Sequence record: PQ671644.1
Origin: Escherichia phage DCP80
DNA length: 64,000 bases
Strand: one strand, 5' to 3'
Of this stretch, positions 1 through 18,211 are shown piece by piece. Below the pieces are notes generated by a model. That model worked only from the letters and a program-made list of their open reading frames with translations, did not search any database and was not told where the DNA came from. How positions within the stretch are numbered: the stretch's first letter is position 1; every line of letters starts with the position of its first letter. Both the position numbers and the translations under genes were made by a program.

Positions 1-111
1 TGTTCATAATTTTCTCTTTGTGTTTGGTTGATATGATAATGATACACCCTTTTGATGAGGTTGTAAACCCCTTATTGCAAATACATCTGGCATTGAAACA
101 AATAAATGCCA
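1..111. repeat. Exact 111-nt copy of 30600..30710 (block-end self-overlap or direct repeat)
   Basis: Base-for-base identity of 1-111 with 30600-30710. The second copy abuts the N10 gap. The repeat contains an early-type promoter on the minus strand (GTTTACA-17nt-TATCAT, 39-67). Confidence 0.95.
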
Positions 112-236
112 AATGACAATTGGTAAAACACCAGATGATGAACTGCAACAAATGGTATCTGATTACAAGTGCTTGATTTATAACAAACAGGAAACACCAG
201 GTACATCTGGCATTGAAACAAATAAATGCCAGATGT
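82..236. repeat. Two copies of a 30-mer, the second inside a 10-bp-stem inverted repeat
   Basis: tacatctggcattgaaacaaataaatgcca occurs at 82-111 and 202-231. acatctggca (203-212) pairs with tgccagatgt (227-236). Confidence 0.9.
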
Positions 237-802
237 ATGCCAAATGTAATTTCTGCGGACTGTTGATAGTAATTCTTGTTTAGAAAAAACCCATGCAGAT
301 TAATAGTTTAGAGAGCAAAAACAAGCCTTTCAAAAACAGTCACTCGGCTGCAAAACCCTTACTTAATAAGTCAACACCTGGTTCCGCCTTCGGCGTCACT
401 AATACTGCCACTCAATAAAAATCATAAGCGCAGCGACTAAGACAGGGCGTAGCCCGTGCCGAAGGCCTATTGCATGTACTAAGAACAATCAAAACAATAC
501 TGATTAATAATTGTAATGAGCCTTCGGCCACTCACTTCGTTCGTGATTATGATTTGATTAATTGATTACTAGATACAACTTGTATTGATAACAAATTGCT
601 TGTAGAATTGATTCTAAGAAGGTTTTAGATGAGACTAGTAGATTTTACTAGCATTAGAAGATTAGAAGCCCTACGGGCTCCGCAGGAGCTATATGATACT
701 AGTAAGAATCATCAATACAATTATCATTCGCTTCGCTCATGAGTTTCACATTTTATCTTCTGTGATTGATTGTTCTTAGTAGTAATGAATCTTGTTAGAA
801 CC

Positions 803-811
803 ATTATAACA
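803..811 (-). promoter_or_regulatory. Extended -10-like element TGTTATAAT (copy 1)
   Basis: The reverse complement of attataaca is TGTTATAAT. The same motif precedes the gene starting at 58584 (58611-58619). No ORF lies downstream. Confidence 0.3.
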
Positions 812-950
812 TGTAAATCTTAAAGCAAATAACAAACGCTTTAAATCTTAGTAGTATTAATGAGAACAATTATCATTCGCTTCGCTCATGAGTTTTACAT
901 TTCTTTTTTGTTGATTTGTTAATGATGATTCTTAGTAACCTTGTAGAACC

Positions 951-959
951 ATTATAACA
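951..959 (-). promoter_or_regulatory. Extended -10-like element TGTTATAAT (copy 2)
   Basis: Second copy, inside the 149-bp tandem repeat. Confidence 0.3.
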
Positions 960-1259
960 TGTAATTTTTGAAGCAATAAAGATTGGATTGTTCTTAGTAG
1001 TATCAATTAGCACCTGCGGTGCGCCTTCGGCATAGAATTTTTAAAGTCAATTTTATTAGAAGTTTTTACAAGCTATTGATTTGATTAGTATTAATTAATC
1101 ATCTTGTGTTGAAATTGCTGTTGTAAGTTATTGATTTGATTGATGAATTTAAAAACTGATAAAAATATATCAAAAAGGTAAGACGTGTGTCTTAGTGTAC
1201 CAAAATGTGAAGGCCCGAAGGGACTGAACTGTCATCATGTTGTTGAAATTTGATGCTGT

Positions 1260-1267
1260 TATAAATA
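1260..1267 (+). promoter_or_regulatory. T4-type late promoter TATAAATA
   Basis: gTTATAAATAaat lies 20 nt upstream of the ATG at 1287, followed by SD aagagg. Confidence 0.7.
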
Positions 1268-1286
1268 AATAAAAAGAGGAAACACA

Positions 1287-1744: not shown

Positions 1745-3716
1745 AGAAAATTTGAGTGTTGAATTCCCTGAAGAAGTTGAACAAGAACAATTCAACCCTG
1801 TAGTTGAACGTATGAAAATTAAAAACATAATCCAGAGAGTATCAAAGTATATCAAAGCTCCTGAAGTGTGTAAGCCATCAGAATGGGTTGAGCGTAATTT
1901 GTATTTCCCTGATGGTCCGATGGCTAACCAACCGATGAAGCTTGATAACTTCCAGAAGGGAATGATTGATTCCATCAACGAAGGCAAGGTTAAAATTATT
2001 TTCATGACCTCCGCACAGATAGGAAAGACAACTGTTCTTAATGGTATGTTGTTCTGGAAATCTGCAATCGAAGGTGGAAACGTTGGTATCGCACAGGCAA
2101 CAGGCAAGGAAGTGTCTAACTGGTTGAACAGTAAGATAAGACCAATGATTGAAGTCTCCCCTGTTATGAAAGACCTGGTTGCGTCAAAAGCTGACCGTGA
2201 TAAATCAAACAACGAATCACGTATCGACCTTATGAACGGTGGTACATGGTTCATGATGTCATTAGGTTCCCCTACGCACCTGCGTGGTAAGACATTACCA
2301 ATGATTCTGATGGACGAAGTTGAAGGCGCAGAAGAATCTGAAGAAGGTTCTCCTATTAACCTGGCTGCCAAACGTGCAACGACTTTCCAGGACGAAGCGA
2401 GATTGATTATTTGCTCAACGCCAAATACGAAGTACGGTCCTATCAATAAAGAATTCGAAGCTTCTGATAAACGATACTTCATGGTTGATTGCCCCCATTG
2501 TGGTCATAATCACAGGATTACGTTTAAAGAGTGTATTAAATTCAATATGATACGTGAACAAGGTAAAGAGATTCCTGATGTTGATTCAGCTGTTCAAATC
2601 TGTCCTTCATGTGAACAGACCATAACAGATATCCAACGTACACGTATGATTCATAACGGTAAATGGGTAGCAACTAATCCAAACTCAAGCTCCATTGGAT
2701 TCCATATCTCTGCTCTTTATTCTCCGCGAAACTCCGTAAAAGGAATCGTGGAAGAGTATAAACAAGCGAGAGCATCGTTTGATGTTAAAAGTTTTTACAA
2801 CACAGTTCTGGGTGAACCATGGTCTGACGGAAACGAAAACATTGAGCTGCATGTTATTGATTCATTAAGAGAACCTATTGGATTGGAAAACATACCTGAT
2901 GATGTGTTGTTCTTAACAGCGGGCGTTGACCAACAGAAAGACCGTTTAGAAATTACAATCTTCGGTCACACAAAACATAAGCTGTACGTATTATCACACA
3001 AATCCATCCACGGACAGAACCTTGAATTGCATAACGACCCGGCATACAAAGGACTATATAATTACATAAGATTACCGTTCACAACTTGTACAGGTCGTAA
3101 GTTGACATTAGCACGAGTTAACATGGACTCCGGTAACGGTCGAGCAACGAAGGTAATTTATTCTTTTGCGCAGAAATGGAACAATATAAAGCCTATCAAA
3201 GGTGCATCAAAAGTTGAAGCTCCGTTTATTCCACCAAAATCTTCAACATCAGGTGGTTATGAATTATGGATGATTGGTGTTAACGAAGGCAAAAACAAAG
3301 TTCGTGAAATTCTTGCATCAAACATAAATGAGGCTGATACTCCTGAACTGGAATTGTCATTGTCTGATGATTTACCTGATGATTATGCTGAACAGTTGTT
3401 ATCAGAAGAAGTTGTCAAATCTGGTACAGCCAGACGCTGGGTAATCAGAAAAGGTGGTGGCCGAAATGAGTGCCTTGATACGTTTGTTTACGGATTAGCT
3501 GCTAGATTTCAAGTACTTAATACAAGTAATTGGGGATTCTGGGAAAAACTGAAAGACAAGAATGAAAAAACTGAGCAAATATCTCAAGAAGAAATTGATG
3601 AATCGGTAGAAACAGGTGTTGTTAACTATGTTGATATTAAACCTGAGAAACCAAAAGTTCAAAGACCACAACGTCCGCAAAGACCAAGGCCAACAACACA
3701 AAGAAGGAGATTCTAA
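1734..3716 (+). CDS. Terminase large subunit, lambda GpA family
   Basis: Matches remembered lambda gpA blocks: MTSAQIGKTT (Walker A region), GSPINLAAKR..STP, CPHCGHNH...CPSCEQ, GFHISALYSP, FYNTVLGEPW, LTAGVDQQKDRLE, IKPIKGAS and RNECLDTFVYGLAA. Confidence 0.93.
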   Translation: MNIEENLSVEFPEEVEQEQFNPVVERMKIKNIIQRVSKYIKAPEVCKPSEWVERNLYFPDGPMANQPMKLDNFQKGMIDSINEGKVKIIFMTSAQIGKTTVLNGMLFWKSAIEGGNVGIAQATGKEVSNWLNSKIRPMIEVSPVMKDLVASKADRDKSNNESRIDLMNGGTWFMMSLGSPTHLRGKTLPMILMDEVEGAEESEEGSPINLAAKRATTFQDEARLIICSTPNTKYGPINKEFEASDKRYFMVDCPHCGHNHRITFKECIKFNMIREQGKEIPDVDSAVQICPSCEQTITDIQRTRMIHNGKWVATNPNSSSIGFHISALYSPRNSVKGIVEEYKQARASFDVKSFYNTVLGEPWSDGNENIELHVIDSLREPIGLENIPDDVLFLTAGVDQQKDRLEITIFGHTKHKLYVLSHKSIHGQNLELHNDPAYKGLYNYIRLPFTTCTGRKLTLARVNMDSGNGRATKVIYSFAQKWNNIKPIKGASKVEAPFIPPKSSTSGGYELWMIGVNEGKNKVREILASNINEADTPELELSLSDDLPDDYAEQLLSEEVVKSGTARRWVIRKGGGRNECLDTFVYGLAARFQVLNTSNWGFWEKLKDKNEKTEQISQEEIDESVETGVVNYVDIKPEKPKVQRPQRPQRPRPTTQRRRF

Positions 3717-4201
3717 TGGCTGAAATTACAAATCCCGATGTTACCTTATACATCGGTTCTGAACTAACTGTTACTATCAAGGGCTCCCATGGGGCCTTTG
3801 GACGTAATGACGGTGAAACATATGGTTTAGAAAACGGTATAAATAAAATCAATACAGACAATCTGACACCAGGTGTTTACACGTTAGTTGATTATGCTGA
3901 TACAATTGAATTCACACGTTATGCTGTGAAATCTCCGTTCGGTAAACAATCTCAACTTGAACAAATTAAAGAAATGATTCGCGCAATCAGAGCTTGTTTG
4001 TTAGCACGTGTGAACGGTGATGATGCATATCTTCAAAGCATGGCTTCAGATGGTTATACATTTGCTTATGCTTCTGTCATGGAGCTTGAAGAATTGTTAT
4101 CTGCAAACGAACGCAGATTAGCAAGAGCCAAACAAGCAGATGACATTAAGAAAGGTAAATCACCTATGAGAACAATTAAAGCGAGGTTCCGTCATGCTTA
4201 A
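3716..4201 (+). CDS. Head-tail joining protein with a gpW-like C-terminal domain
   Basis: Sits between terminase and portal, as lambda W does. The C-terminal roughly 80 aa resemble the gpW pattern (QLEQIKEMIRAIRACLL..., ...VMELEELL). The N-terminal roughly 75 aa are extra. Confidence 0.45.
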   Translation: MAEITNPDVTLYIGSELTVTIKGSHGAFGRNDGETYGLENGINKINTDNLTPGVYTLVDYADTIEFTRYAVKSPFGKQSQLEQIKEMIRAIRACLLARVNGDDAYLQSMASDGYTFAYASVMELEELLSANERRLARAKQADDIKKGKSPMRTIKARFRHA

Positions 4202-5788: not shown

Positions 5789-7789
5789 ATGTCGCAAACA
5801 ATCAGATTAAAACGTGAAATTTCTGTAGAGAAAATTCAGGCTGATGAAGACGGGATTTATGAAATTGCATTTTCTTCTGAAACCCCTGTTGAACGTCAGA
5901 TTGATACTCGTCACGGTCCACAAATTGTGAATGAAATTCTCATGCACACAGGTCCGGAAAACGCAGATTTAGAGCGTATAAATAATAATGCAAGCTTGCT
6001 GTTTAACCACAATTTCGACAACCATTTAGGTGTTGTTGTTCCTGGTTCAGTACGTATTGACAATGATAAAGTTGGCCGCGCTAAAGTAAAATTTTCAAGC
6101 GTTGGACAATTAGCACAAGAGATTAAAGCCAAGGTCGATGAAGGCACAATCTCAAAAATTTCGTTTGGATACGACATTAACGAGTATGATGTTGTTGGTG
6201 ATGACATGCTTGTTTCTCGTTGGGCACCATATGAAATTTCTTTCGTCACTGTCCCGGCAGATGATAAGGTTGGCCTCGGCCGCAGTATAAATAATATTGT
6301 AATTAACACAAATAAGGAAAAACGAATGAAACGTTACGAAGATTTTGAAATTGAAGACATCGTTGAACTGTCACGTGAAGAACTCGCTGATATGACAATC
6401 GCTGAAATCGAAGCCCTGGCTGAAGATGTACGTGCTAAGCGTGAAGAATTGCTTGACGAAGTTGAAGACGCTGAGAAAGAAGAAAAAGTTACCGATGAAG
6501 AAGATGCTGACTACGACAAAGCTGAAGGCAAAGATGCAGAAGCTAAAGTTGAAGATAAAAAAGCCGAAGGCATCGAAGACGAACTCACTGCTGAAGAGCG
6601 TGAAGAAGAAATCATCGAAATTGAAGAAATCGCTGAACGATACAAAATCGGTCGCGGAGAAGTTCGCAAAGCCATCGCAAGTGGCATGACTGCTCGTCAG
6701 TTCAAACGTTCTATTAAACCATCTAAAAACAAAAAGGAAATTCGTACTATGACTACCTCTATCGCTAAAGATACCCAGAAAAACCTCGAAGCTCGTTTTG
6801 ACCTGGCTGAAGTAACCCGTTCACTTGCTGCTGGTAAAGACATTAAAGGCGCTGCTGCTGAGTACTCTCAGGAAATGACTCGTAAACGTCAGAACGCAGG
6901 TCGTGACATTAACGGTCGTGCATATATCCCGGTAAGTGCTCTGCAAGGTCAGCGCGCAGTAAACACCGTTCCTACCGTTGCAAATATCGAACAGCACTAC
7001 GTTGATTACAACAGCTTTGTTGAATTGCTGCTCAAACCAACTGTAATTGGTAAACTGGGTGTTAACTTCCAGACCGGTCTGACCACTCCTTACGATGTAC
7101 CGAAACAAACTTCCAGCTCTGTTGATGCGTTTGGTTTCGTTGCTGAAAACGGTGACTCTCCTGAAGGCGAAAGCGGATTTGACATCATCAAATTCATGCC
7201 GCACACCTTTACTGGTGGTAACCCGATTTCTCGTCAGGCTCTTAACACCATGCCTAACCTGGCAAGCTTCATCTCTAACCACATCGTAGAACAATCTCGT
7301 TCTAAGATTCAAGGTCTGATGTTTGGTTCTGCTACTGACCCGGTTGCTTCTGGTGCTAACGCTCCGCAGAGCATCATCGCTCAGTTGGTTGCTAAGCAGA
7401 TTGGTATGACCTACAAAGAATTCGTTACCCTGGCTGCTGAAGCTGAAGGTAAAGGCGTTGCAATGGACCGCTTCAAGTATCTGATTGCTTCTGCACTTGG
7501 TGGTGAACTGAAATCCACTCTGCGTGATGCTGCTGTTGCTGGTTACATCATCGATGATGAAAACCGTATCGGTGGTCATGATGTAGTTACCTCTGGTCTG
7601 GTTAAACCTGGTCAGATTCTGTCTGGTGACTTCTCTGCAATCACTGTTGCTGAATGGGAAGGTCTGGCACTGGATATGGACGACACGACCTATCGTAACA
7701 AAGGCGCTATCGTTCCGCGTGTTTGGTGTGATATCGATTGGAAAGTTACTGCTGACGACCGTCTGTTCTTGTTCGAAAAGACAGCATAA
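5789..7789 (+). CDS. Single ORF fusing an HK97-type prohead protease, an acidic scaffold (delta-like) region and an HK97-fold major capsid protein
   Basis: The N-terminus has U35/S78 protease motifs (LLFNHNFDNHLG, ISFGY, YEISFVTVPAD). Residues about 180-320 are an E/D/K-rich coiled coil. The C-terminal roughly 345 aa are capsid-like with strong codon bias. Confidence 0.8.
   Translation: MSQTIRLKREISVEKIQADEDGIYEIAFSSETPVERQIDTRHGPQIVNEILMHTGPENADLERINNNASLLFNHNFDNHLGVVVPGSVRIDNDKVGRAKVKFSSVGQLAQEIKAKVDEGTISKISFGYDINEYDVVGDDMLVSRWAPYEISFVTVPADDKVGLGRSINNIVINTNKEKRMKRYEDFEIEDIVELSREELADMTIAEIEALAEDVRAKREELLDEVEDAEKEEKVTDEEDADYDKAEGKDAEAKVEDKKAEGIEDELTAEEREEEIIEIEEIAERYKIGRGEVRKAIASGMTARQFKRSIKPSKNKKEIRTMTTSIAKDTQKNLEARFDLAEVTRSLAAGKDIKGAAAEYSQEMTRKRQNAGRDINGRAYIPVSALQGQRAVNTVPTVANIEQHYVDYNSFVELLLKPTVIGKLGVNFQTGLTTPYDVPKQTSSSVDAFGFVAENGDSPEGESGFDIIKFMPHTFTGGNPISRQALNTMPNLASFISNHIVEQSRSKIQGLMFGSATDPVASGANAPQSIIAQLVAKQIGMTYKEFVTLAAEAEGKGVAMDRFKYLIASALGGELKSTLRDAAVAGYIIDDENRIGGHDVVTSGLVKPGQILSGDFSAITVAEWEGLALDMDDTTYRNKGAIVPRVWCDIDWKVTADDRLFLFEKTA
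6286..6293 (+). promoter_or_regulatory. Internal late promoter cassette inside the protease-capsid ORF
   Basis: tataaataatattgtaattaacacaaataaggaaa is nearly identical to the intergenic cassette at 13165 (tataaataatattgtaaattaaccccaaataaaaggaaa). It is followed by an SD and an in-frame ATG at 6326. Confidence 0.6.
6326..7789 (+). CDS. Nested in-frame product: scaffold(delta)-major capsid protein (487 aa)
   Basis: M180 of the long ORF is preceded by aaggaaaaacga and by the internal TATAAATA. This is analogous to the lambda C/Nu3 nested arrangement and to HK97 gp5 with its delta domain. Confidence 0.55.
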   Translation: MKRYEDFEIEDIVELSREELADMTIAEIEALAEDVRAKREELLDEVEDAEKEEKVTDEEDADYDKAEGKDAEAKVEDKKAEGIEDELTAEEREEEIIEIEEIAERYKIGRGEVRKAIASGMTARQFKRSIKPSKNKKEIRTMTTSIAKDTQKNLEARFDLAEVTRSLAAGKDIKGAAAEYSQEMTRKRQNAGRDINGRAYIPVSALQGQRAVNTVPTVANIEQHYVDYNSFVELLLKPTVIGKLGVNFQTGLTTPYDVPKQTSSSVDAFGFVAENGDSPEGESGFDIIKFMPHTFTGGNPISRQALNTMPNLASFISNHIVEQSRSKIQGLMFGSATDPVASGANAPQSIIAQLVAKQIGMTYKEFVTLAAEAEGKGVAMDRFKYLIASALGGELKSTLRDAAVAGYIIDDENRIGGHDVVTSGLVKPGQILSGDFSAITVAEWEGLALDMDDTTYRNKGAIVPRVWCDIDWKVTADDRLFLFEKTA

Positions 7790-7796: not shown

Positions 7797-7814
7797 GGAG
7801 AGAGCAATCTCTCC
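7797..7814 (+). terminator. Hairpin after the capsid gene (7-bp stem, GCAA loop)
   Basis: ggagaga-gcaa-tctctcc, 8 nt after the stop codon. Confidence 0.4.
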
Positions 7815-7904
7815 TATGAGTTTGGGCGCAGAAGCTCTTGATGCCGCTCCGGTTAAAAAAAGCAAGAGCGCGTCGGGTTAAATCTACTGACTAACAAACT
7901 ATAA

Positions 7905-7928
7905 GGGAGCCTTCGGGTTCCCTTTTTT
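7905..7928 (+). terminator. C(UUCG)G hairpin plus T-run terminator
   Basis: gggagccttcgggttccc followed by tttttt. Confidence 0.7.
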
Positions 7929-7930
7929 GT

Positions 7931-7938
7931 TATAAATA
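7931..7938 (+). promoter_or_regulatory. T4-type late promoter TATAAATA
   Basis: gTTATAAATAagg lies 17 nt upstream of the ATG at 7955, with SD aaggag. Confidence 0.7.
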
Positions 7939-7954
7939 AGGTAAAGGAGAAATT

Positions 7955-8350
7955 ATGGAAATAAAAGATTCATCTACAACCAAATTTGTCCAGGAAGCAG
8001 TATTGATTTCTAATAAATCATATGGTCAACGTCGTTTTAACAGTTTCACTCAGAAAGAACAATCATTGTTCACCAAAAAGATGGGGCTTAAAACACGTGT
8101 TAGAGATAACTTTGCACCTGAAACGATTGAAGAAATAAACGCAATCTGGCGTGAACAACGAGAAGACACCGACCTTTCTGTTGGTAGTATGATTTATATC
8201 TTGATAGACGAAGATGATTTCTTTTTCTGGCGCGAGTATGAATCACCTGAAGGAAAATGGTATAAAGCTGGTAATACCACCAAATCTTATAACGGTATGC
8301 TCCGTGTAGAATTATCAATAGGGGAAGCAGATGGCAAGTTCAATTATTAA
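7955..8350 (+). CDS. Hypothetical virion-module protein (131 aa)
   Basis: ORF with an SD and a late promoter, in the head-tail connector position. Confidence 0.5.
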   Translation: MEIKDSSTTKFVQEAVLISNKSYGQRRFNSFTQKEQSLFTKKMGLKTRVRDNFAPETIEEINAIWREQREDTDLSVGSMIYILIDEDDFFFWREYESPEGKWYKAGNTTKSYNGMLRVELSIGEADGKFNY

Positions 8351-8753
8351 TTATCCACCGTTGAGCGTTAAAAAAGGCCTCGAAACTGTTATGAAACAAA
8401 TTGGTATCAAAGTTAACGTTGATTCTTATAAAGCTGATGTTAATGATGAAATCCAAGGTGTAGTAATGGGAATTCAATCCGAGTATCAAGAGCCAACTCC
8501 TATGCAGAAACACCAATTTGTTGACCTGACAGTTAACGTTGGATTGTTTACCAAACGTGATGCATTGCTGTTAGCCGAAGCCGCTGAAGAAATTAAGAAA
8601 ATCGATTTTGCACAAAAACCTTATAATGATTTGGTTGATTTCAAAGTTAACCGCATGTGGGTGTCTTCTGATACGATTGATTTCAGCGAAACAGATTCCG
8701 ATGGTAACGTACAAGCGATAATCATTTTCAATATCCAATACCTCAAAATTTAA
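8331..8753 (+). CDS. Hypothetical virion-module protein (140 aa)
   Basis: Overlaps the upstream ORF by 20 nt, with SD ggggaag. Connector or completion position. Confidence 0.5.
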   Translation: MASSIINYPPLSVKKGLETVMKQIGIKVNVDSYKADVNDEIQGVVMGIQSEYQEPTPMQKHQFVDLTVNVGLFTKRDALLLAEAAEEIKKIDFAQKPYNDLVDFKVNRMWVSSDTIDFSETDSDGNVQAIIIFNIQYLKI

Positions 8754-8759
8754 GGAGCT

Positions 8760-10859
8760 ATGATGGCTGAAGTTTTTGCAGGAACTAAAGTACGTATGGC
8801 TGTTAACGAAGACCTAACTTCTAACAGCCCTATGTACATTGACGCAGGGTATGTACCCTTAGATAATCTGGTTGCATTTCCAGAGATAACCACACAAACT
8901 GAAACATACAAAATGGAATCATATAACGAGGATTATGAGCGCGTTATATTAGGAGCATATGGTTCCGCCCCAGTTACAATCCAAGTTGCCGAAGTTGCCG
9001 ATGATGAAGCACAAGGTATCCTTGACAAGTATCTTAACTCAATGAAAATGTTACGATTCCGTATCATGTGGGTTGAAAAGGAATTACCTCCGGTTGAAGG
9101 TATGCCTGCTGAAGAACAATACAGTGGTCCAACTGCAATCTTTGATGCTTATGTGACTTCTACTCATCTGTCGGGTGGTGAAAACCAAACTGTTATTCGC
9201 AGTTATACATTATCCCCGTTTGGAAAAGTTACACGTGATGTAACAAACCTTGGTGAGTACGTTCGTCGTGGACAATATGGCGTAGGTGGTGGTACAACTG
9301 ATTATCCGGGCCCTACAGACACCAATAGTTATGAAGGTAACCGTTGGGTCAACCTGTCGGCAGCAAGCTCCCAGAACCCATTTGCGGACTCCACAGGGGC
9401 TATGACAGTACAATCAGGTGAGCAAGGTTGGGCATTAGTCGGTTCTTCAACTGGTAACATGATGCTCCGTGCCAGAAACCGTCAGCTATCACGTGTTGGT
9501 GAGTGGACCAAAATCTATACCTCCGCTGAACCACCTACTGCAGCTGAAATTGGTGCTATCCCAACAGTAGGTGATGCTTATGTACAAGGTAACTTGAAAG
9601 CAAACAGCTTCTACGTAACTGATACTGCTGGAACAACTATCACCACGCAGATTAACAAAGACGGTATCACCACTAACGTGTTGAAAATCACAGGCTCTGT
9701 TAACTCTCCTAACTCTAATATCAGCGGCACATCAACGCTTAATATTGTAACGGCGAATAAGTTAACTGCTCAGGAATTGATTTCTCCATTGGCTCGTATT
9801 GATACTGGTACAGTTACAACGTTGGGTTCAACTGATTTCACAGCTTTCGACGCAGTTGTTAATAACAAGTTGGTTGCGAAAGAAGCAGAGATTGATGATT
9901 TAACGATTAACACAAGATTCCACGTAGGTGCAGGTGCTTCGTTCCAGATTGCTGGTAACGTACAATCAGCAACTGTAACTGCAACGGATAAAGTTACAAC
10001 CAAGAACCTTGAAGTACAAGAGGTTGAAAAGGTTGGACAAGTTAACCCTAACCGTGTTTTTATTCACTCTGTAAATGAGACTCCAGAAGCATACGACTCC
10101 ATGAACACAGGTATATCGCCTAAGTTGTCGTTATCCCAAGCAGCAACATTAGTTGGATATGCAGGTGAATTTAAACCAGACGGCTCAACACTGAAAGCTT
10201 ACGAGTTTACAAACAACTTGCAACAGTTAGAAAATGCCAGAATTACCAACTTAACAGTTGTGAATGGAATTGGTGTTAATAACTTATCATTCAGTGGGGC
10301 AATCACAGCTGGTAATAGCGATGCTAAGATTTTGTTAGAAACTCCGGACCAAGTTATTGTCTCAAATGATGCAACTCCTGGAGTAGCTGCAGCTCACTGG
10401 ACTGAAATTCGAGCAGGTGTTATCTACATCGATGGTAAACCAATTTGGCACGATGGTAATATCCCTAACGTTGTACAAATGGGCGGTGTTCCATTAAATG
10501 GTAACTCAACAATAACTGGTGATGTAACTGTTAAAGGCCGTGTTTCTGCTGATTCAATGCGTGTCGGTCCAAACATTTTGATGACAACGGACCTTATAAA
10601 TATTGGTATCGGAACAATCAAAATCGGTGGACAAGAAATTTTCCATCCAGGTAACCCTCCAACTGCTGCACAATGTAAAGCTGTTCCATTAGCTGGTAAC
10701 TCGAGAATGGACGGTGAATTGACAGCTAACAAACTTTACGAGTACAACACTGTTACTTCTACACAAGAACGTGTTTTTAGCCCGTTAAACAGACCAACTG
10801 CAGCAAATGCCGGTGTTATGGTTCTGCTTGGTGACGTTATCGATTTTGGTTTAGAATAA
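8760..10859 (+). CDS. Tail-tube-like N-terminal domain fused to a long fibre with tail-fibre repeats
   Basis: The N-terminal roughly 165 aa align with the 164-aa tube protein at 13211 (FAG..V....ED.T...P..AGY..VP....AFPE...Y...Y.R). The C-terminus has repeats such as IWHDGNIPN..GGVPLNGNSTITG and IFHPGNPPTAAQ..AVPLAGNSRMDG. Confidence 0.6.
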   Translation: MMAEVFAGTKVRMAVNEDLTSNSPMYIDAGYVPLDNLVAFPEITTQTETYKMESYNEDYERVILGAYGSAPVTIQVAEVADDEAQGILDKYLNSMKMLRFRIMWVEKELPPVEGMPAEEQYSGPTAIFDAYVTSTHLSGGENQTVIRSYTLSPFGKVTRDVTNLGEYVRRGQYGVGGGTTDYPGPTDTNSYEGNRWVNLSAASSQNPFADSTGAMTVQSGEQGWALVGSSTGNMMLRARNRQLSRVGEWTKIYTSAEPPTAAEIGAIPTVGDAYVQGNLKANSFYVTDTAGTTITTQINKDGITTNVLKITGSVNSPNSNISGTSTLNIVTANKLTAQELISPLARIDTGTVTTLGSTDFTAFDAVVNNKLVAKEAEIDDLTINTRFHVGAGASFQIAGNVQSATVTATDKVTTKNLEVQEVEKVGQVNPNRVFIHSVNETPEAYDSMNTGISPKLSLSQAATLVGYAGEFKPDGSTLKAYEFTNNLQQLENARITNLTVVNGIGVNNLSFSGAITAGNSDAKILLETPDQVIVSNDATPGVAAAHWTEIRAGVIYIDGKPIWHDGNIPNVVQMGGVPLNGNSTITGDVTVKGRVSADSMRVGPNILMTTDLINIGIGTIKIGGQEIFHPGNPPTAAQCKAVPLAGNSRMDGELTANKLYEYNTVTSTQERVFSPLNRPTAANAGVMVLLGDVIDFGLE

Positions 10860-10867
10860 AATTAATC

Positions 10868-10881
10868 GGGGCTTCGGCCCC
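10868..10881 (+). terminator. C(UUCG)G hairpin (no T-run, possibly an RNA stabiliser)
   Basis: ggggcttcggcccc, 9 nt after the stop codon. Confidence 0.45.
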
Positions 10882-10898
10882 CTAAATGAGGAATTAAA

Positions 10899-13136
10899 AT
10901 GGCTGACGTACGCGCAAATTCAAAATTTAAATTTCGTAGGTCTCGTAACCCTGGTTATATCCCTAAAGCAGCAGACCTATTAGAAGGTGAACTGTTTATC
11001 AACGTTGCTGATAAAAAATTGTATACAAAAGATGAAGAAGGTGGCGTAATTATTGCTATTGGCGGTGGTTCAGGCGGCGGCGGTGGTGAATTAGGCGGTG
11101 GCGCAATTATCATTCGTCCGGAAGACGCAGTTAACAGCAGCGGCAACTTGATTCTTTCTACAACTAAAGTTGGTGAAGCTTCTTATGCTCGTGGTTTATC
11201 TGGTCTTAATATGAAAATGCAGCAATATATACCAACTGATTCAGACCCAATAAACGTTGACTCGCTTTATCTGGAGATTGGCTCCAAAACCCAACTCAAC
11301 GATGGAGCAGCCAACCCTTATGTTGAAATTCCCGGTAAATTGGCATTTGTTACATCTCGCGGAAACTCATCAGGCGTAACAACTGCATCACCTGGTGCAA
11401 CAGTAATAACTGCAAAACCTGGTGCAACATGGCACCGTGAATTTGGTACCCCTGTTGATGAATCAACACTAAAACTTGGCGACGGCACGGTCACGATTTC
11501 TTCAAAAGACATTATAATTGGTAAGAGCACATCAGATGTTTTTACAAAATCTATACAAAATAATATGGTTTATATTAACAGCCCAAATCTTATTTTAGGT
11601 GGTTCTGTTGACATTTCTGGATTAAAAACTTTAAACGGCGGCGCAACCTCAACAATTGATGTTGGTGCTTTAACTTCACAAGGTAACACAGTTGTTAAAG
11701 GTGACCTTTATGTTGAAGGTGAAATTATTTCTGGCTCCCCAACTCCAGGTCCAAAGCCTTTAGAAGACTTAGCTGGATTAAGTTTAAAATTAACATATGG
11801 TGCAACAGTTGGTACTAATATTGATGCTGGTGGTTATGTTCGTTTAAAAGACGAATTAACTGTTAAAGGTAAACAAAATACAACTGATTACGAATTTAGT
11901 ATCCAACATCGTAATCGTTCCGGTGAAGACTGGGAAGGTAACACAATTTTTTATTCAGAAACTTTCTTAAAATCAACTAATGATGTTTATTTTGTTTCAG
12001 AAATTAATGAATTTACAACTTCTGACCCAACTTATCAAAACATAAGAGCAGCTAATATCCGTGGTAGCAATGGTACCTTTAGTGGTAATTTAACTGGTTA
12101 TTATGGTGGATTCTTTGATAATAATATCACAATCAACGAAAACGGTATTAATTTAGCAAATGATTCTGGTTATTCACTTGGATTAAACTTCTTCAGTAAT
12201 AAATCTGTTGCAATCAGTCTGAAAACTGAAGCCGATGGTGCTGGTCTGGTAACCGATTATAATGCATCTTATACCAAGTTGAAAGATGATGAATTTGTTA
12301 TCGGTACCTCAATTGGTGATGGTTTTAAAGGTGTTACAATCAATAACGTTAAAGAGACAAACGCGGGCGTAACTGTTACTCCTTCCGTTTCTTCTACAAC
12401 TGTTAAACTGATTGAAGCTAACTATGGTAACTTTTCTCCATATATCAGTTCAACGTCCAACAGCATCACTATTGCACCTGATGAACAATCTAAAGTAACT
12501 TTTAGTAACACTGGTGTAGTATTTGGCCGTGAAGTTACAACTCCTGCTGTTCAATTAGGTCAGGCCAGGGTTGAGCAAACTGGTAACATCCTGGGTGGTA
12601 CATGGGGTGTAGACCTTAAGAGTTATATCAATAACCAGATTGCAAATGGATTTGTTAACGTTACAACCAACACTGTACAACTTCCTGATGCATTAATCAG
12701 TGCAGACGGTAACGTAACTGGTGGTATCTGGGGCACTGATAAGACTTTGAAAGAGTATATCGATGCTAATGCAGGCGGTGGCGGCGGTTCAGGTGGTCGT
12801 AAAGAAGCGGTTAAAGTTTGGACTGGTTCTGTATCCGGCGCGGCGAACACAAGCCCGATGACTATTACTTCTACAGAAGATGGTGACTTCCGTTGCGGTG
12901 GAAAGTTAATGCTTAAAGAATCATCTGGTGCTTGGTTAGAGTATGATTTTGATTGTCCAGATTCAGCATCACCTCCGGCTGGCACTGTTCAGTTTAACAG
13001 ACAAATCTTTTCTCAGAACACAGGCGCATCTGATATGATTCTTGCTCAGAACAGCATGTCCGGTACAAAAACTACATGGTCGCTTTACGGTCACGCTCGT
13101 AAAACATACACCGAAGCTTGGTGGCGTCCATACTGA
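10899..13136 (+). CDS. Tail fibre protein (745 aa)
   Basis: N-terminal fibre motif LLEGELFINVADKKLYTKDEEGGVI. Two Gly-rich linkers (GGGSGGGGGELGGG and AGGGGGSGG). A distinct C-terminal roughly 110-aa Cys-containing domain. Confidence 0.6.
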   Translation: MADVRANSKFKFRRSRNPGYIPKAADLLEGELFINVADKKLYTKDEEGGVIIAIGGGSGGGGGELGGGAIIIRPEDAVNSSGNLILSTTKVGEASYARGLSGLNMKMQQYIPTDSDPINVDSLYLEIGSKTQLNDGAANPYVEIPGKLAFVTSRGNSSGVTTASPGATVITAKPGATWHREFGTPVDESTLKLGDGTVTISSKDIIIGKSTSDVFTKSIQNNMVYINSPNLILGGSVDISGLKTLNGGATSTIDVGALTSQGNTVVKGDLYVEGEIISGSPTPGPKPLEDLAGLSLKLTYGATVGTNIDAGGYVRLKDELTVKGKQNTTDYEFSIQHRNRSGEDWEGNTIFYSETFLKSTNDVYFVSEINEFTTSDPTYQNIRAANIRGSNGTFSGNLTGYYGGFFDNNITINENGINLANDSGYSLGLNFFSNKSVAISLKTEADGAGLVTDYNASYTKLKDDEFVIGTSIGDGFKGVTINNVKETNAGVTVTPSVSSTTVKLIEANYGNFSPYISSTSNSITIAPDEQSKVTFSNTGVVFGREVTTPAVQLGQARVEQTGNILGGTWGVDLKSYINNQIANGFVNVTTNTVQLPDALISADGNVTGGIWGTDKTLKEYIDANAGGGGGSGGRKEAVKVWTGSVSGAANTSPMTITSTEDGDFRCGGKLMLKESSGAWLEYDFDCPDSASPPAGTVQFNRQIFSQNTGASDMILAQNSMSGTKTTWSLYGHARKTYTEAWWRPY

Positions 13137-13138
13137 TA

Positions 13139-13159
13139 GAAGGCCTTCGGGCCTTTTTC
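13139..13159 (+). terminator. C(UUCG)G hairpin plus T-run terminator
   Basis: aaggccttcgggccttttt. Confidence 0.7.
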
Positions 13160-13164
13160 AGCGT

Positions 13165-13172
13165 TATAAATA
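13165..13172 (+). promoter_or_regulatory. T4-type late promoter TATAAATA
   Basis: gTTATAAATAatattg lies 39 nt upstream of the ATG at 13211. Confidence 0.7.
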
Positions 13173-13210
13173 ATATTGTAAATTAACCCCAAATAAAAGG
13201 AAACTAAACA

Positions 13211-13705
13211 ATGTCTACATTTGATATTTTTGCAGGTTCGTATGTATCGGTTTTCATGACTGAAGACATCACTAACAAACTCCCGGCTTTCGCAGGTTAT
13301 AAATTTGTTCCAGAAACGGGTGCTTTCCCTGAATCCGGTTCAGAGCGTCAGGTAATCGATGTTCCTAACTACTCTGATAACTATAACCGTAAACTGGTTG
13401 GTCGTGGTTCTGTTCCGGCTATTGACCTTACTGTTAACTACAAAGCTGGCTCTATCCATGATACTCTTTCTAAATTGTCTGATGACGGTAAACGCTTCCA
13501 GATTAAAATTGTATACTGGATGGACGGTACTTATACTGATGGTATCGCAATCATCTATAATGGCTTCTTGAGTTCAGACCGTACAACTGGTTCTGATAGT
13601 TCTGCTGTTCAGAAAGTGTTTACGTTTGAAGTTGATGGTGGCCCGGTTGCTCGTGCTATCGTTACAGGCAGCGGTGAGAAACCTACCGAAGAGCCTATCG
13701 TTTAA
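13211..13705 (+). CDS. Major tail (tube) protein (164 aa)
   Basis: Lies immediately upstream of the chaperone pair and tape measure. Strong codon bias, own late promoter and terminator. Confidence 0.65.
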   Translation: MSTFDIFAGSYVSVFMTEDITNKLPAFAGYKFVPETGAFPESGSERQVIDVPNYSDNYNRKLVGRGSVPAIDLTVNYKAGSIHDTLSKLSDDGKRFQIKIVYWMDGTYTDGIAIIYNGFLSSDRTTGSDSSAVQKVFTFEVDGGPVARAIVTGSGEKPTEEPIV

Positions 13706-13710
13706 TGAAC

Positions 13711-13732
13711 GGGACCTTCGGGTCCCTTTTTT
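13711..13732 (+). terminator. C(UUCG)G hairpin plus T-run terminator
   Basis: gggaccttcgggtccc followed by tttttt. Confidence 0.75.
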
Positions 13733-13735
13733 GTT

Positions 13736-13743
13736 TATAAATA
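13736..13743 (+). promoter_or_regulatory. T4-type late promoter TATAAATA
   Basis: tTTATAAATAttg lies 34 nt upstream of the ATG at 13777. Confidence 0.65.
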
Positions 13744-13776
13744 TTGCTATATAATAACCTAACCAAAGAGGCTGAT

Positions 13777-14133
13777 ATGAACTTAGATGAATTAATGGAA
13801 GCGGTAACCCCTGAAGGGTTGGAATTCCTGGAAGTAAAATTAAAAGACAAAACTTTTAAATTCTATTGTCAACCAATGGACCTGAAAACTTATCAACTTT
13901 TTACAATGAACAGAGACCTTGCTGCTGTTGCTCCTTACGTTATTATGAAAGGGATTGTTGATGTTGACCGTAACCCTATTTTTAAAACAGCAAAACAAGT
14001 AACAAACCTGCCCACATGGTTGCAGAGTGATTTATTCAACTACGTTTTCGCATTTACAACTCGTTTGCCAGAAGACGTTGAGATTGAACAAAGTTTAAAG
14101 CCGATTGGGTCAAAAGATTCCGCTACCGATTAA
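13777..14133 (+). CDS. Tail assembly chaperone (gpG analogue)
   Basis: ATG with SD aaagagg (M12 of the track ORF). Sits between the tube and tape measure genes. Confidence 0.6.
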   Translation: MNLDELMEAVTPEGLEFLEVKLKDKTFKFYCQPMDLKTYQLFTMNRDLAAVAPYVIMKGIVDVDRNPIFKTAKQVTNLPTWLQSDLFNYVFAFTTRLPEDVEIEQSLKPIGSKDSATD

Positions 14134-14462
14134 TTCTTCGTGGATTGCTTCCAGAGATTATTGATAGCATGTCATTGCATGAATTTAAAGAGCTCTATAT
14201 TATGGATACCTATTTGGAACCGCAAGGACCAAACGCAGACGAAATGAGAGCAGCCAGACAAATTCATGCTCAATATATGACATCTCCAAACATGACCGCA
14301 AAAGCTGCTAAGGAAATTAAAGTTACAAACTTTACAATGCTTGGTAAAAATGTGTTCAAAACTCAGGAAGACATCATTGAAGAGAATAAAATCAAACAGA
14401 AAGAGGCTATGGAGCTTCAATTCGGCGACCTTTTGGCCCAAATGAAAAAAGAGGAAAAATAA
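13777..14462 (+). CDS. Tail assembly chaperone GT-type frameshift fusion (13777..14100 joined to 14100..14462)
   Basis: Canonical G/GT arrangement upstream of the tape measure. The downstream ORF lacks a convincing independent start (TTG at 14145). Confidence 0.5.
14094..14100 (+). promoter_or_regulatory. -1 programmed frameshift slippery heptamer T_TTA_AAG
   Basis: The heptamer is in phase with the G frame (codons TTA 14095 and AAG 14098). The -1 frame is open from 14088 through 14462. Confidence 0.6.
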
Positions 14463-16877
14463 ATGGCTGGTTCAAATTATAATTTAGAGATTACAGGTGA
14501 TAATAATAAATTTAAGCGTGTTGTCTCCGATTCCATGAAGCAGCTTGATGATTTATCTAAAAAAACCGGTGGTGCTTTTGCAAGCATCTCCGGTCAAATG
14601 GGTAATATGTCAGGACTGTTAAGCTCTATTAAAGGACTCCCTGCGCCATTGATGGCTGTTGGTGCTGCTGCTTCTGCGGCTTCATTAGCTTTTGATGCTT
14701 TTAACAAATCAAGAGACCAAGTTGCTGACCTTAATAAGTTGTCAACTGCAACAGGATTAACTGTTGAAGAATTACAGAAAATAACAAACGCTTTCAAAGA
14801 AACTGGTATTGAAATGGAACAATTCACGGCTATTAACCAGGACACGCTTGATAAGTTAGCAGACGGTGTTAAAGATGGTTCCGGTATTGTACAAGACCTG
14901 AAAGATTATGGAATCGAAGTACAACAATACTCCGAATTTATTAACCAGGCAAATGGTGGTTTAAAAGCTGTTATTCGTACGTTCTATGAAATGCAAGCAG
15001 CTGGTAAATCTCAAGCAGAAATGATTAACATGATGGAAGCAATGGGTTCAGACGCTTCTAAACTGATTCCTATTCTTAAGAATCTGGGTTCAGAACAATT
15101 AGCTCTCCAACACATCAATGGACAATCTGTTACTGTTACTAATGAAATGGCCGAATCTTACAAAGCATATGAAACAGCATTGTCAAAAATGTCAACAGAA
15201 GTTGATGCTCTGCGTAACGATGCAATGGTACCATTTGTTGAAATCATGACGGATATCCTGGAAGATGGTGGAAAGGTAATTCAAATTATTAACTCCATTC
15301 GTACTGATGATTCACAGGAAAACATCAAACGTTTAACAAAAGAATTTGGTGCATTAGCCGAATCTATTAAATTCGTTGCGGACACGTGGGACATGTTAAC
15401 TGGACTGGAACATTGGCTTGATGATGCAAAAGATAAATCCCAATCATGGATTGCAGATGGATTGGCAAGTGCAAGTAACAATGCGTTTGGTACGAATTTT
15501 AAAACAGATTCGATGATTAAATCTAACGCGCAAATTTCTGCCCGTGATTATGATATATCAGGTCCAGCTCCGCAAGGTGATTGGAAACCGGCAGCTCCCA
15601 AAACTCCTGACCCTAATGTCAATATGTATAACAAGGAAGATAACGATAAGGCTAAAAAGGCTAAATCTGCACAAGATGCGGCTAAGAAAGCAGCAGCGGA
15701 AATGGCTAAGCAGTTGGCTGAACGTAAGGCTATGCTTGCAGAAATTAATACAATTAACCAGAGTCTTTATACACAACAAGCATCAACCTTCGCAGCTGAA
15801 TCACAGCAGGCGGAAGCAAACGTTGCTAAGTTGCAGGAATTGCTCAGTAAAGGTATTATTACACAGCAAGAGTTTGAAACTAAACGTAAAGCTATCATAG
15901 ACCAATCAAGCTTCAACCTTGAACAAACTTTGCTTGGTACAACTGATGGTGACCTGTCAACTATCCTGGCTGGTATCAATCAGGTTTATACAGACACTAA
16001 CAATAACTTGAAATCCCAGTTGGAAGCACGTCTGATTACTCAGGAACAGTATAATCAGAAACTGGAATTAAACGAACAGATGCATACAGCAAGGATGTAT
16101 GAATTCCAAGTTGCAAAGGACAACTCCCTCCAGGCTCTTCGTGAATTAGGATTCACAACTGATGAAGAAAACTTCCAGATGGAAATGGAAAAAATGGACG
16201 AACAATTTGAGAAATTACAAGCTGATAACCAAGCTCGTTATGATGCACAGATTATTTCTTATGAAGAATTTCTGGCTTCTAAAGCTCGATTGGAAGATGT
16301 TTATGCAGCCAAATCAACTCAGTTGGAAAATGACCGAATGAAATCCAACCTGGCCGTTGGTGAATCTCTGGCAACTTCTATGCAGGGAATCTTTGCAGGT
16401 GCTTTTGGTGAACAATCTAAAGCTGCTAAAGCCGCGTTTGTTGTATCAAAATCTTTAGCAATCGCTCAGAGTACAATGGACGCTCACTCTGCTGCAACTA
16501 AAGCTCTGGCAACTTATCCACAACCAATGGGTGGAATCATGGCTGGTGCTGCTTATGCTCAGGTTCTGGCACAGGTTGCATCGATTAAATCCACCAACCT
16601 AACTGGTATGGCTCACGATGGCATTGATACCGTTCCAGAAGAAGGCACATGGTTACTCCAGAAGGGTGAACGTGTGGTTGATAACAGGACTAACCAAGAC
16701 CTGAAAGATTTCCTTCGTGATGGTTCCGGTTCAGGTGGTAATCCGATTGAGATTAATGCCCCATTAAATATCAGTGGGAACGTCGATTCTTCTGACAGAA
16801 TGGTAATGGATGCGATTAACCGTTATCCTGAAGAGGTTGCTCGCATGGTCGAGAAAGCACAATCTAAACGCATGTAA
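14463..16877 (+). CDS. Tape measure protein (804 aa)
   Basis: Long alpha-helical, coiled-coil and Ala-rich protein in the canonical position. The C-terminal block GMAHDGIDTVPEEGTWLLQKGERVV resembles lambda-H C-terminal domains. Confidence 0.85.
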   Translation: MAGSNYNLEITGDNNKFKRVVSDSMKQLDDLSKKTGGAFASISGQMGNMSGLLSSIKGLPAPLMAVGAAASAASLAFDAFNKSRDQVADLNKLSTATGLTVEELQKITNAFKETGIEMEQFTAINQDTLDKLADGVKDGSGIVQDLKDYGIEVQQYSEFINQANGGLKAVIRTFYEMQAAGKSQAEMINMMEAMGSDASKLIPILKNLGSEQLALQHINGQSVTVTNEMAESYKAYETALSKMSTEVDALRNDAMVPFVEIMTDILEDGGKVIQIINSIRTDDSQENIKRLTKEFGALAESIKFVADTWDMLTGLEHWLDDAKDKSQSWIADGLASASNNAFGTNFKTDSMIKSNAQISARDYDISGPAPQGDWKPAAPKTPDPNVNMYNKEDNDKAKKAKSAQDAAKKAAAEMAKQLAERKAMLAEINTINQSLYTQQASTFAAESQQAEANVAKLQELLSKGIITQQEFETKRKAIIDQSSFNLEQTLLGTTDGDLSTILAGINQVYTDTNNNLKSQLEARLITQEQYNQKLELNEQMHTARMYEFQVAKDNSLQALRELGFTTDEENFQMEMEKMDEQFEKLQADNQARYDAQIISYEEFLASKARLEDVYAAKSTQLENDRMKSNLAVGESLATSMQGIFAGAFGEQSKAAKAAFVVSKSLAIAQSTMDAHSAATKALATYPQPMGGIMAGAAYAQVLAQVASIKSTNLTGMAHDGIDTVPEEGTWLLQKGERVVDNRTNQDLKDFLRDGSGSGGNPIEINAPLNISGNVDSSDRMVMDAINRYPEEVARMVEKAQSKRM

Positions 16878-16891
16878 GGGGCTTCGGCCCC
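16878..16891 (+). terminator. C(UUCG)G hairpin (no T-run)
   Basis: ggggcttcggcccc directly after the stop codon. Confidence 0.4.
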
Positions 16892-18208: not shown

Positions 18209-18211
18209 CGT

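Follow-up and report, generated by a model that had tools for sequence, protein, structure and literature searches.

What is the function of the long gene-free region that lies ahead of the packaging and structural genes at the start of Escherichia phage DCP80 (sequence record PQ671644.1)? We analysed a stretch of 64,000 nucleotides (nt) of this record, hereafter the window, for which an earlier note had described a region poor in open reading frames (ORFs) at 112-1286 and had offered three unranked options, namely a replication origin, a terminase or packaging recognition region and a small-RNA locus. Our analysis favours the origin and small-RNA options in combination, because the core of the region consists of promoter-driven, non-coding, A-rich units with the anatomy of the T4 origins oriF and oriG, and it disfavours the packaging site. 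The region is a variant of known T4 regulatory and origin modules, located in an unexpected genome. We propose that region 1-1286 serves as the early-control and replication-origin region of a 30.6-kb phage-like element, and we put the probability of the full mechanism described below at roughly 45%.

Every feature listed in the earlier note is present and far above chance. The region indeed lacks an ORF of at least 60 amino acids (aa), the longest being of 56 aa (113-283, plus strand) and 49 aa (72-221, minus strand). The 56-aa ORF is chosen by gene callers yet has no ribosome-binding site, and we rejected it as a gene because about 15 of its 18 variable sites among seven sequences alter the amino acid, as judged from a codon-by-codon reading of the alignment. 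A decayed protein gene was likewise rejected, as the translations of 81-1290 in six frames had no match among 12 related loci. No tRNA or tmRNA was found in the window, and Rfam 15 gave no match at the gathering score there, with two chance-level snoRNA matches (E = 2.1 and 4.4) in 1-1400.

The genomic context is unlike that assumed before, since the window is a scaffold that joins the element to a T4-like phage. It contains five runs of N (30711-30720, 40994-41040, 49791-49800, 56743-56760 and 62887-62940). Bases 1-111 are identical to 30600-30710, which abut the first of these gaps, and contig 1 (1-30710) thus closes on itself to a circle of 30,599 bp. The circular junction of the element is real: five independent Logan contigs (L037-L041; related sequences are given L numbers throughout) run from the leftward 105-aa gene (30289-30606) into positions 8-746, and the 30,478-bp ENA contig L045 spans the entire gene-free region. 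A T4-like coliphage from the SP18/VR7 group (Gaprivervirus) accounts for all sequence past 30720, with UvsX 99-100% identical. Its contigs encode clamp loader, topoisomerase II, a DnaB-like helicase, Ndd and MotA; the gene for MotA (30840-31448, minus strand), which contains both Pfam domains (MotA_activ and MotCF), is the first after the first N gap. Both MotA and AsiA are encoded by VR7.

The core of the region is the imperfect 149-bp tandem duplication noticed before. Segments 700-767 and 849-916 are 79% identical and 796-828 and 944-976 are 91% identical, and a global alignment of 700-848 with 849-997 gives 72% identity over 154 columns with a score of 60 versus -7 ± 5.5 for shuffled sequence (about 12 standard deviations). 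Tandem Repeats Finder does not call this duplication, and the Logan contigs of relatives all break at the 149-bp repeat. The minus-strand motif TGTTATAAT that had been reported in each unit is found in both (811-803 and 959-951). What had been missed is that it forms the -10 portion of a full MotA-box middle promoter. In unit 1 (700-848, minus strand) the MotA box ATTTGCTTTA (830-821) is followed by a 12-nt spacer, TGn (811-809) and TATAAT (808-803), with a predicted start at about 797. Unit 2 (849-997, minus strand) has the MotA box TATTGCTTCA (978-969), again a 12-nt spacer, TGn (959-957) and TATAAT (956-951), and its predicted start is at about 945. The consensus of middle promoters, (a/t)(a/t)(a/t)TGCTTtA centred near -30 and 12 ± 1 bp from TAtaaT, often with TGn (PMC2988021), is matched by both unit promoters in MotA box, spacing, TGn and -10 element. 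Two places in the contig, one in each unit, match the strict pattern TGCTT[TC]A-N11-13-TATAAT, where 0.009 occurrences are expected. The MotA promoter is invariant in L001, L002 and L003, and it is the sole part of the region that can be aligned with L003, a relative with 72% identity in the large terminase (TerL). In an exact search of the 2.9 million viral contigs of IMG/VR, the pattern together with the start region TGTTATAATGNNTCTA was found at eight loci in seven genomes of about 155-172 kb. The VR7 uvsY (oriF) promoter, AATGCTTTAA-N11-TATAATGGTTCTAG, has the same core as the units.

Downstream of the promoter, on the minus strand, the units share one layout, comprising about 75 nt of non-coding sequence (95 nt in L003), GTGAAAC and a small hairpin. 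In unit 1 an A-rich untranslated stretch leads to GTGAAAC and a hairpin at 742-724, and in unit 2 an A-rich unstructured stretch leads to the hairpin at 891-873. The units contain no conserved ORF; one of 26 aa in unit 1 has no equivalent in unit 2. Over their first 70 nt, the predicted transcripts have 67-74% A+T in every unit. Over the same length, those of the window, L001 and L003 comprise 49-51% A (98th to 99.8th percentile) and 64-66% purine, and the L002 transcript is lower with 41% A and 57% purine. The corresponding 70 nt of the T4 oriF transcript have 70% A+T, 50% A and 64% purine. A middle promoter that stands ahead of a gene in L003 is followed by sequence with 27% A, a composition that is not origin-like. 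Between the window and L003 the sequence of the transcribed stretch is not conserved while its composition is, and this fits an unwinding element better than a base-pairing RNA.

The T4 origins oriF and oriG are about 100 bp long and consist of a middle promoter and a replaceable A+T-rich unwinding element, with the transcript priming replication from an R-loop; plasmids carrying oriF or oriG replicate in T4-infected cells (PMC3016281). On the points that can be read from sequence the units appear to match this description, with the exception of duplex stability in the window. The tandem units may thus be oriF-like modules, each a promoter with an unwinding element, that would be served by the MotA, AsiA and replisome of a helper phage.

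The region is further marked by GC-rich mini-hairpins. The earlier note had listed at least eight; we count nine perfect ones in 1-1286, with stems of at least 3 bp and triloops of the C(GNA)G or C(TNC)G type, versus 0.21 ± 0.47 in 1000 first-order Markov shuffles (maximum 3). The other 29 kb of the contig contain 12 mini-hairpins of this type. Among triloop hairpins with stems of at least 4 bp, 5 of 5 are of the GNA/TNC type in the region versus 1 of 14 elsewhere in the element. The five loops (GTA, GCA, TAC, TGC and TTC) read as GNA on one strand or the other, with C-G closing, and the nine hairpins fall in both orientations. Four of them, cgccTTCggcg (385-395), gggcGTAgccc (445-455), gccGAAggc (458-466) and gccTTCggc (520-528), are all intact in L045 despite adjacent substitutions.

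Two boundary modules that are inverted copies of each other, 73% complementary over 56 nt, bracket both units. The left module (658-713) contains a double mini-hairpin, agcccTACgggct (667-679) and gctccGCAggagc (677-689), which on the minus strand is followed by the U-rich CUUCUAAUCUUCUAAU and is thus a candidate end of the unit transcripts. The right module (986-1041) contains the double mini-hairpin gcaccTGCggtgc (1010-1022) and gccTTCggc (1023-1031), followed on the plus strand by AUAGAAUUUUU; its hairpins are kept in eight relatives, and the bases directly after them vary. The unit hairpin itself reads UCAU-GA-GC-GAA-GC-GA-AUGA on the minus strand, i.e. an outer stem, a tandem G.A mismatch and an exact GCGAAGC. 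Its counterpart in L002, UUCGU-GA-AC-GCA-GU-GA-ACGAA, keeps the same shape through compensatory changes in both stems, and one L003 copy has this layout as well.

Single-stranded DNA of the type GCGNAGC, with GNA loops only, melts at 70-76 °C, is nuclease-resistant and binds single-strand-binding protein poorly, and such mini-hairpin DNA occurs at the priming sites of G4, St-1 and alpha3, in RSF1010 ssiA (CCGAAGG) and in N4 early promoters (PMC13037366). Nearest-neighbour DNA energies revealed no strand asymmetry of the mini-hairpins; the parameters seemingly lack a bonus for GNA loops, hence this comparison is uninformative. The temperate relatives L006 and L017 also have hairpins of the types GCGCGAAGCGC and GGGCGTAGCCC clustered in their gene-free regions; more distant relatives lack them. 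Their occurrence in relatives without T4 promoters indicates that the hairpins are older and that the T4 promoters were added in the lineage of the window.

Both edges of the region carry promoters that had escaped notice, a T4 late promoter ahead of the packaging operon and an early promoter on the left. The late promoter TATAAATA (1260-1267, plus strand) precedes by 19 nt the ATG at 1287 of the first packaging and structural gene, which has a ribosome-binding site GAGGA at 1276-1280. The small terminase gene does not adjoin the region and lies at 25760-26251. The 8-mer TATAAATA is the commonest in the element on the sense strand, with 16 sense and 0 antisense copies compared with about 1 per strand expected. 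Eleven copies are on the plus strand, all in the rightward block, and five on the minus strand, all in the leftward block; 11 of the 16 lie at most 80 nt upstream of a start codon. The density of TATAAATA is 0.42-0.87 per kb in L001-L004, and three temperate relatives of equal G+C content have 2, 0 and 0 copies per 22 kb each. The copy at 1260-1267 is kept in L001, L002, L004 and L042-L048. In L042 the similarity to the window starts at this promoter, indicating a mosaic joint at TATAAATA. A T4 late promoter has this motif at -10 upstream of late genes and no -35 element. T4 late promoters are dependent on gp55, gp33 and the gp45 clamp (PMC6024815).

At the left edge, a T4-type early (sigma-70) promoter (27-81, minus strand; -35 TTTACA 67-62, -10 TATCAT 44-39) faces the leftward operon. 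It has 10 of 12 matches in our scan, is among the few best sites of the contig, and over 48-55 nt shares 84-88% identity with an intergenic sequence found in 19 VR7-group phages. In VR7 this stretch lies between mobD.7 and mobD.5, in gene orientation upstream of mobD.5. Identity to the T4-like contig on the same scaffold is 81%. In a nucleotide comparison with known phages, this 55-bp early promoter was the sole match. The adjoining 105-aa gene starts at 7-1 (ATG 7-5, minus strand), with its body at 30289-30599 on the circular map, and its product has no homologue in the phage collection. Promoter and gene (30300-30599 plus 1-81) occur in six relatives and are cleanly missing from L045 (around 3700-3760), and thus represent an indel, i.e. 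a cassette that is present or absent. In our view, both the MotA-box and the TATAAATA promoters are likely to be real and in use.

Which factors would read these signals? The element's two divergent blocks are separated by the region, the sole large intergenic one between them. The products of the rightward block (1287-26251) are two small proteins, a GpA-type large terminase, portal, protease-capsid fusion, tail proteins, a T4-type endonuclease VII, a lysozyme and a Nu1-like small terminase, and the leftward block (26293-30606) comprises an HNH endonuclease gene plus a dozen small ORFs that match no family. Searches against Pfam and PHROGs found no polymerase, primase, helicase, initiator, integrase, sigma factor, MotA, AsiA, gp55 or gp33 family in the element. 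Judged by its sequence, the element thus uses T4-type promoter grammar without encoding T4 factors, which suggests a phage living off a T4-like phage. Its endonuclease VII shares about 50% identity with gp49 of T4-like phages, occurs also in L003 and is lacking in the temperate relatives; it would fit a genome that needs excision from T4-style branched replication intermediates. Tentatively, the element may be viewed as a phage-on-phage parasite, a complete virion-builder that is expressed and replicated by a coinfecting T4-like phage via promoter copies and tandem oriF-like origins.

We infer from these features that helper factors use the promoters, that the units function as R-loop origins and that the mini-hairpins act in single-stranded DNA. 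In the proposed sequence of events, the early sigma-70 promoter would fire leftward into the small-gene operon, and AsiA and MotA of the coinfecting T4-like helper would steer host RNA polymerase to both unit promoters. The purine-rich transcript would remain on the easily unwound template as an R-loop, as at oriF and oriG, and, once trimmed, would prime the leading strand for the helper replisome. On the displaced strand, C(GNA)G mini-hairpins could form that stabilise the open origin and/or mark sites of lagging-strand priming or helicase loading, and the flanking GC hairpins would stop the transcripts and limit the opened zone. Once replication starts, gp55, gp33 and gp45 of the helper would read the 16 late promoters of the element, the one at 1260-1267 driving the packaging and structural operon. 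Proteins of the element or the host probably bind to the iteron-like array at 82-248 and to the 17-mers within 1070-1141. These repeat arrays seem to be a layer inherited from temperate ancestors, since the gene-free region of temperate relatives has iterons and GCGAAGC-type hairpins.

Several points weigh against this proposal. All its functional steps, i.e. transcription, R-loops and replication, are deduced from sequence. The DNA downstream of the unit promoters in the window is moderately unstable, at the 83rd to 88th percentile of 70-bp windows, compared with the 98th percentile for the same stretch in L002 and L003, and less stable DNA is found at 1049-1175 and 25613-25720. Middle promoters with A-rich leaders are not confined to origins, as the T4 uvsY promoter also serves a gene, and the leftward unit transcripts could feed the leftward operon or act as regulatory RNAs. 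The role of the hairpins predates the T4-style wiring and may be independent of it. The origin could equally lie in a second gene-free stretch of 640 bp within the leftward operon (29137-29772), and one of the thirteen small ORFs without family match could be an unrecognised initiator or transcription factor. Finally, the presence of element and T4-like phage on one scaffold may reflect the shared sample only: the exact MotA protein was found at ten places among the matches listed, none in samples that hold the element and two from neighbouring accessions, and same-sample co-occurrence was dropped as an argument.

Could the same features be explained without an origin? The region might be a promoter and non-coding RNA locus only, giving rise to short regulatory RNAs, about 130-280 nt long and terminated by the GC double hairpin, or to long-leader middle transcription of the leftward operon, with the mini-hairpins terminating or stabilising RNA. 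In its favour, the promoters are both strong and conserved, folding of the unit-1 transcript (655-798) gives z = -3.0, a value reached by 1 of 200 shuffles, this transcript has a GC hairpin with a U-rich tail at its end, and further terminator-like hairpins lie leftward at 214-193 and in the 34-nt repeats. Hairpins with UUCG loops at gene ends of the element indicate a clear use at the RNA level, and in L003 a similar middle promoter stands directly before a gene. Yet no fold is common to the units and relatives (z = +1.8 for unit 2, -0.7 for L002 and -0.7 for L003), and a conserved structured small RNA was therefore rejected. The varying sequence of kept composition also argues against a base-pairing RNA, and triloop stems of 3-4 bp are very weak as RNA and belong to an exceptionally stable type of DNA (PMC13037366). 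Since the hairpins occur in both orientations, half of them would be wrong-stranded for any single transcript, and at least three hairpin or terminator-like sites lie between the units and the first leftward gene, which has its own promoter. We regard a locus of RNA function alone as rather unlikely. Quite unlikely as the whole explanation, in our view, is an ancestral, helper-independent origin of the iteron or strand-displacement type, similar to RSF1010 oriV, in which a protein encoded by the element or the host would bind 82-248 and 1070-1141, AT-rich DNA would melt, the oppositely oriented mini-hairpins would serve a primase as signals for single-strand initiation and the T4 promoters would be a later expression overlay. 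It is in keeping with the temperate relatives with about 52% TerL identity, in which a gene-free region of 1.1-1.3 kb occupies the same place between divergent operons, and with the iterons (AGACCTTAA-type in L005, GGTAYAGTTTG five times in L003) and GCGAAGC/GGGCGTAGCCC hairpins seen there without T4 promoters. The boundary modules are inverted as in RSF1010, where ssiA and ssiB are arranged as inverted copies, and the repeats are kept while the spacers vary. Repeat arrays and oppositely oriented hairpins are present, but an initiator family and a primase or helicase gene were not found in the element with Pfam and PHROGs, and conservation within the region is highest at the MotA promoter rather than in the repeat arrays. 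A 243-aa protein was considered as a homologue of the proteins of 243-288 aa at the same position in relatives and was dropped, the identity being 15-22% without any family match. An ancestral origin is compatible with the oriF-like units and may coexist with them.

A packaging role of the region is unlikely, because a better cos candidate is located upstream of the small terminase gene. The idea that the region is a cos or pac site, with the GC-rich double hairpin as nicking site and the 17-mers and IHF-like sites as a cosB-like element, draws on the lambda cosN-cosB layout, which is resembled by the GC-rich symmetric element (1009-1031), the two 17-mers 55 bp apart and the following operon. 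The large terminase, of the lambda GpA type (PF05876, PF20454), begins 450 nt downstream, and contig L004 begins at window position 1178. However, L001 and L043-L047 (including L045) continue through 1178, as most relatives' contigs extend across the region, nine hairpins are present where a single nicking site is expected, and in the temperate relatives the gene-free region is 4.7-5.7 kb away from the large terminase gene. Unlike lambda cos, in which cosQ-cosN-cosB precedes Nu1 and A, the region does not adjoin a Nu1-type gene: the Nu1-like small terminase (phrog_57, weak Nu1 match; 25760-26251) is 5.6 kb from the region round the circle. In distant relatives the genes for small and large terminase are adjacent. 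Directly upstream of the small terminase gene (25525-25720) we find AGTTACTTT-N20-GATGTTACGCCCAC, which is common to the window and L003 (3033-3075) and present in L006 (about 2243-2285) in a diverged form only, AGTTACTCT-N20-GATGTT. This cos-like element has a GC-rich palindromic centre (CCGGGGGCCCCCTCCCCGGG), and behind the element come phased A-tracts whose duplex stability is the lowest in the contig. With a conserved candidate of this kind at 25.5-26.3 kb, we consider a cos or pac site in region 1-1286 very improbable.

Returning to the proposed oriF-like origin region, how does it compare with known systems? As in T4 oriF and oriG, a middle promoter of the MotA-dependent type is followed by an A+T-rich stretch within about 100 bp, with a composition nearly the same as oriF's, and the core of the VR7 uvsY promoter, TGCTTTAA-N11-TATAATGGTTCTA, equals that of the unit promoters. 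In contrast to the T4 origins, the units reside in a 30.6-kb genome with a lambda-type head and terminase and without motA, asiA or replisome genes, and they are arranged in tandem, have no gene downstream, end in a GNA hairpin and are bracketed by inverted GC mini-hairpins. Early, middle and late T4 promoter classes are all represented with consensus sequence and spacing, while the carrier genome is not T4-type. The indel of early promoter plus gene and the mosaic joint at the late promoter are reminiscent of the mobile promoter/stem-loop cassettes (PeSLs) of T4-type phages that Arbiol et al. reportedly described in 2010.

The mini-hairpins share with those of G4, St-1 and alpha3, RSF1010 ssiA and N4 the C(GNA)G loop, with CCGAAGG-like copies and, in each of the two units, an exact GCGAAGC on the minus strand, as well as the clustering in an AT-rich non-coding region in both orientations. 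Unlike in these systems, neither a cognate primase (RepB') nor a virion RNA polymerase gene is found in the element. N4 early promoters have stems of 5-7 bp with a 3-nt loop, and the stems here are shorter; with no polymerase family in the element, the hairpins do not qualify as N4-type promoters. With the satellites P4, phage-inducible chromosomal islands (PICIs) and PICI-like elements (PLEs), the element has in common an apparent reliance on the products of another phage and signals tuned to that phage. These satellites, in contrast, borrow virion proteins and mostly bring their own replication functions, whereas the element carries its packaging, head, tail and lysis genes in full and would take its transcription factors and replisome from the other phage.

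We found no T4-like-phage-dependent element of this kind described in the literature, our coverage of which is incomplete, so that an earlier description may exist. If the proposal holds, this would be the first T4-type origin and middle-promoter module outside T4-type genomes, and a helper-dependent phage that inverts the logic of satellites by keeping virion genes and borrowing transcription and replication. The requirements of the T4 R-loop origin have been listed as an open question (PMC3016281), and a minimal, duplicated, gene-free T4-type origin with conserved accessory hairpins would be a natural test case. It would also provide a natural setting for a biological role of GNA mini-hairpin DNA. 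Assemblies of T4-like lysates and viromes may conceal the element, and scaffolds can fuse it to its presumed helper.

The remaining features of the region lie towards its edges. The array at 82-248 comprises sites of the ATGCCARATG type, with five copies in 165 bp beside the early promoter. The 30-mer repeat reported before is real and extends to 34 nt (82-115 and 202-235, 33 of 34 identical, each forming a hairpin), whereas the reappearance of 1-111 at 30600-30710 is the contig overlap and not an extra repeat. The inverted repeat at the second copy is also present, with a perfect stem of 13 bp (202-214/225-237) rather than 10 bp. An 11-nt tandem repeat follows at 226-248, and a terminator-like site is located at 214-193 on the minus strand. 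Conservation in relatives had been proposed as a check: among seven sequences the 34-nt repeats are kept, and the spacer 113-211 is hypervariable, varying more than any other part of the region. L003 and L005 have other iterons at the same relative place. The array is a candidate protein-binding array and/or terminator pair for leftward transcripts.

On the right, the recurrent motif ttattgatttgatt is part of a 17-mer, AAGYTATTGATTTGATT, repeated directly at 1070-1086 and 1125-1141 (16 of 17 identical, plus strand), and the third copy reported near 549 is weaker (83% over 18 nt). These repeats lie in the least stable DNA of the region (top 0.4% of windows). The first copy is kept in all relatives, L002 included, and both are candidate binding sites for an IHF-like protein. 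Between them and the late promoter are a hairpin TAAGAC-GTGT-GTCTTA (1179-1194) and a mini-hairpin cccGAAggg (1214-1222). The relatives keep the TAAGA/TCTTA stem with a varying loop, and GAAGGCCCGAAGGGACTGAAC is invariant in eight sequences.

The relatives were found through exact-protein look-ups. Close relatives, with TerL 72-98% identical, occur in at least 13 public samples, the longest contigs being of 29,973, 30,478 and 31,592 bp; scans of IMG/VR and JGI metagenomes with the large terminase gave no close relative. Across 50,697 phage records, the large terminase is matched with 29.7% identity at best. A second group with TerL about 52% identical consists of uncharacterised Enterobacteriaceae prophages of about 32 kb with a serine recombinase. 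This prophage family (L017 and L005-L007) has no relative in the phage collection; each member has a gene-free region of 1.1-1.3 kb with iterons and GCGAAGC-type hairpins, in which PGAP annotates nothing. The prophage L017 (E. coli PSS-15, NZ_AP027709.1 3347069-3376255) is integrated beside ybiT. L003 has an extra gene for a 239-aa protein (8797-9516) between the gene-free region and the packaging genes, the N-terminus of which by eye resembles a GIY-YIG homing endonuclease, though the protein has no Pfam match. In L042 (SRR14520626), positions 1-425 upstream of the packaging operon are unrelated DNA with a 122-aa ORF.

Within the element, five copies of TATAAATA are located inside genes (3838, 4229, 5977, 6286 and 10595, plus strand). 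Two of them fall within the protease-capsid fusion (5789-7789), where internal late promoters could yield nested products. The largest ORF encodes a tail protein of 1266 aa (1252 aa in our own gene calls). A lone 103-aa ORF on the minus strand within the rightward block (24465-24776; counterpart in L003 at 2103-2396) has its own T4-early-like promoter at 24854, GGTTTACG-17-TGTTATACT. The second gene-free stretch, 29137-29772, contains a late promoter at 29216 and the repeats AAAACAGCCTTTTTT (three copies) and GATTAAAAGTCC(C)AAAAA (two copies). UUCG-tetraloop hairpins with stems of 5-8 bp stand at gene ends in sense orientation, often 10-25 nt ahead of TATAAATA, in the intercistronic style of T4. 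Examples within 7797-27179 are those at 10868-10881, 13140-13155, 13711-13726, 16878-16891, 18187-18202 and 22441-22460, and, on the minus strand, at 26270-26289, 26550-26563 and 27164-27179.

In the T4-like part of the window, 34833-40993 and 42925-49790 form an apparent 6-kb inverted repeat with arms 91-99% complementary. As the arms stop exactly at N gaps, we rejected it as biology; most likely two strain-variant T4-like contigs have been placed head to head in opposite orientations. ORFs of 744, 324, 197 and 121 aa are duplicated through this doubling. The T4-like contigs also contain a promoter-like repeat of 65 nt (GTAACTCAGTATGGAATCATTATG...GTACACTACTTT) in three copies that are 71-80% identical (31687-31751, 35694-35758 and 58976-59040).

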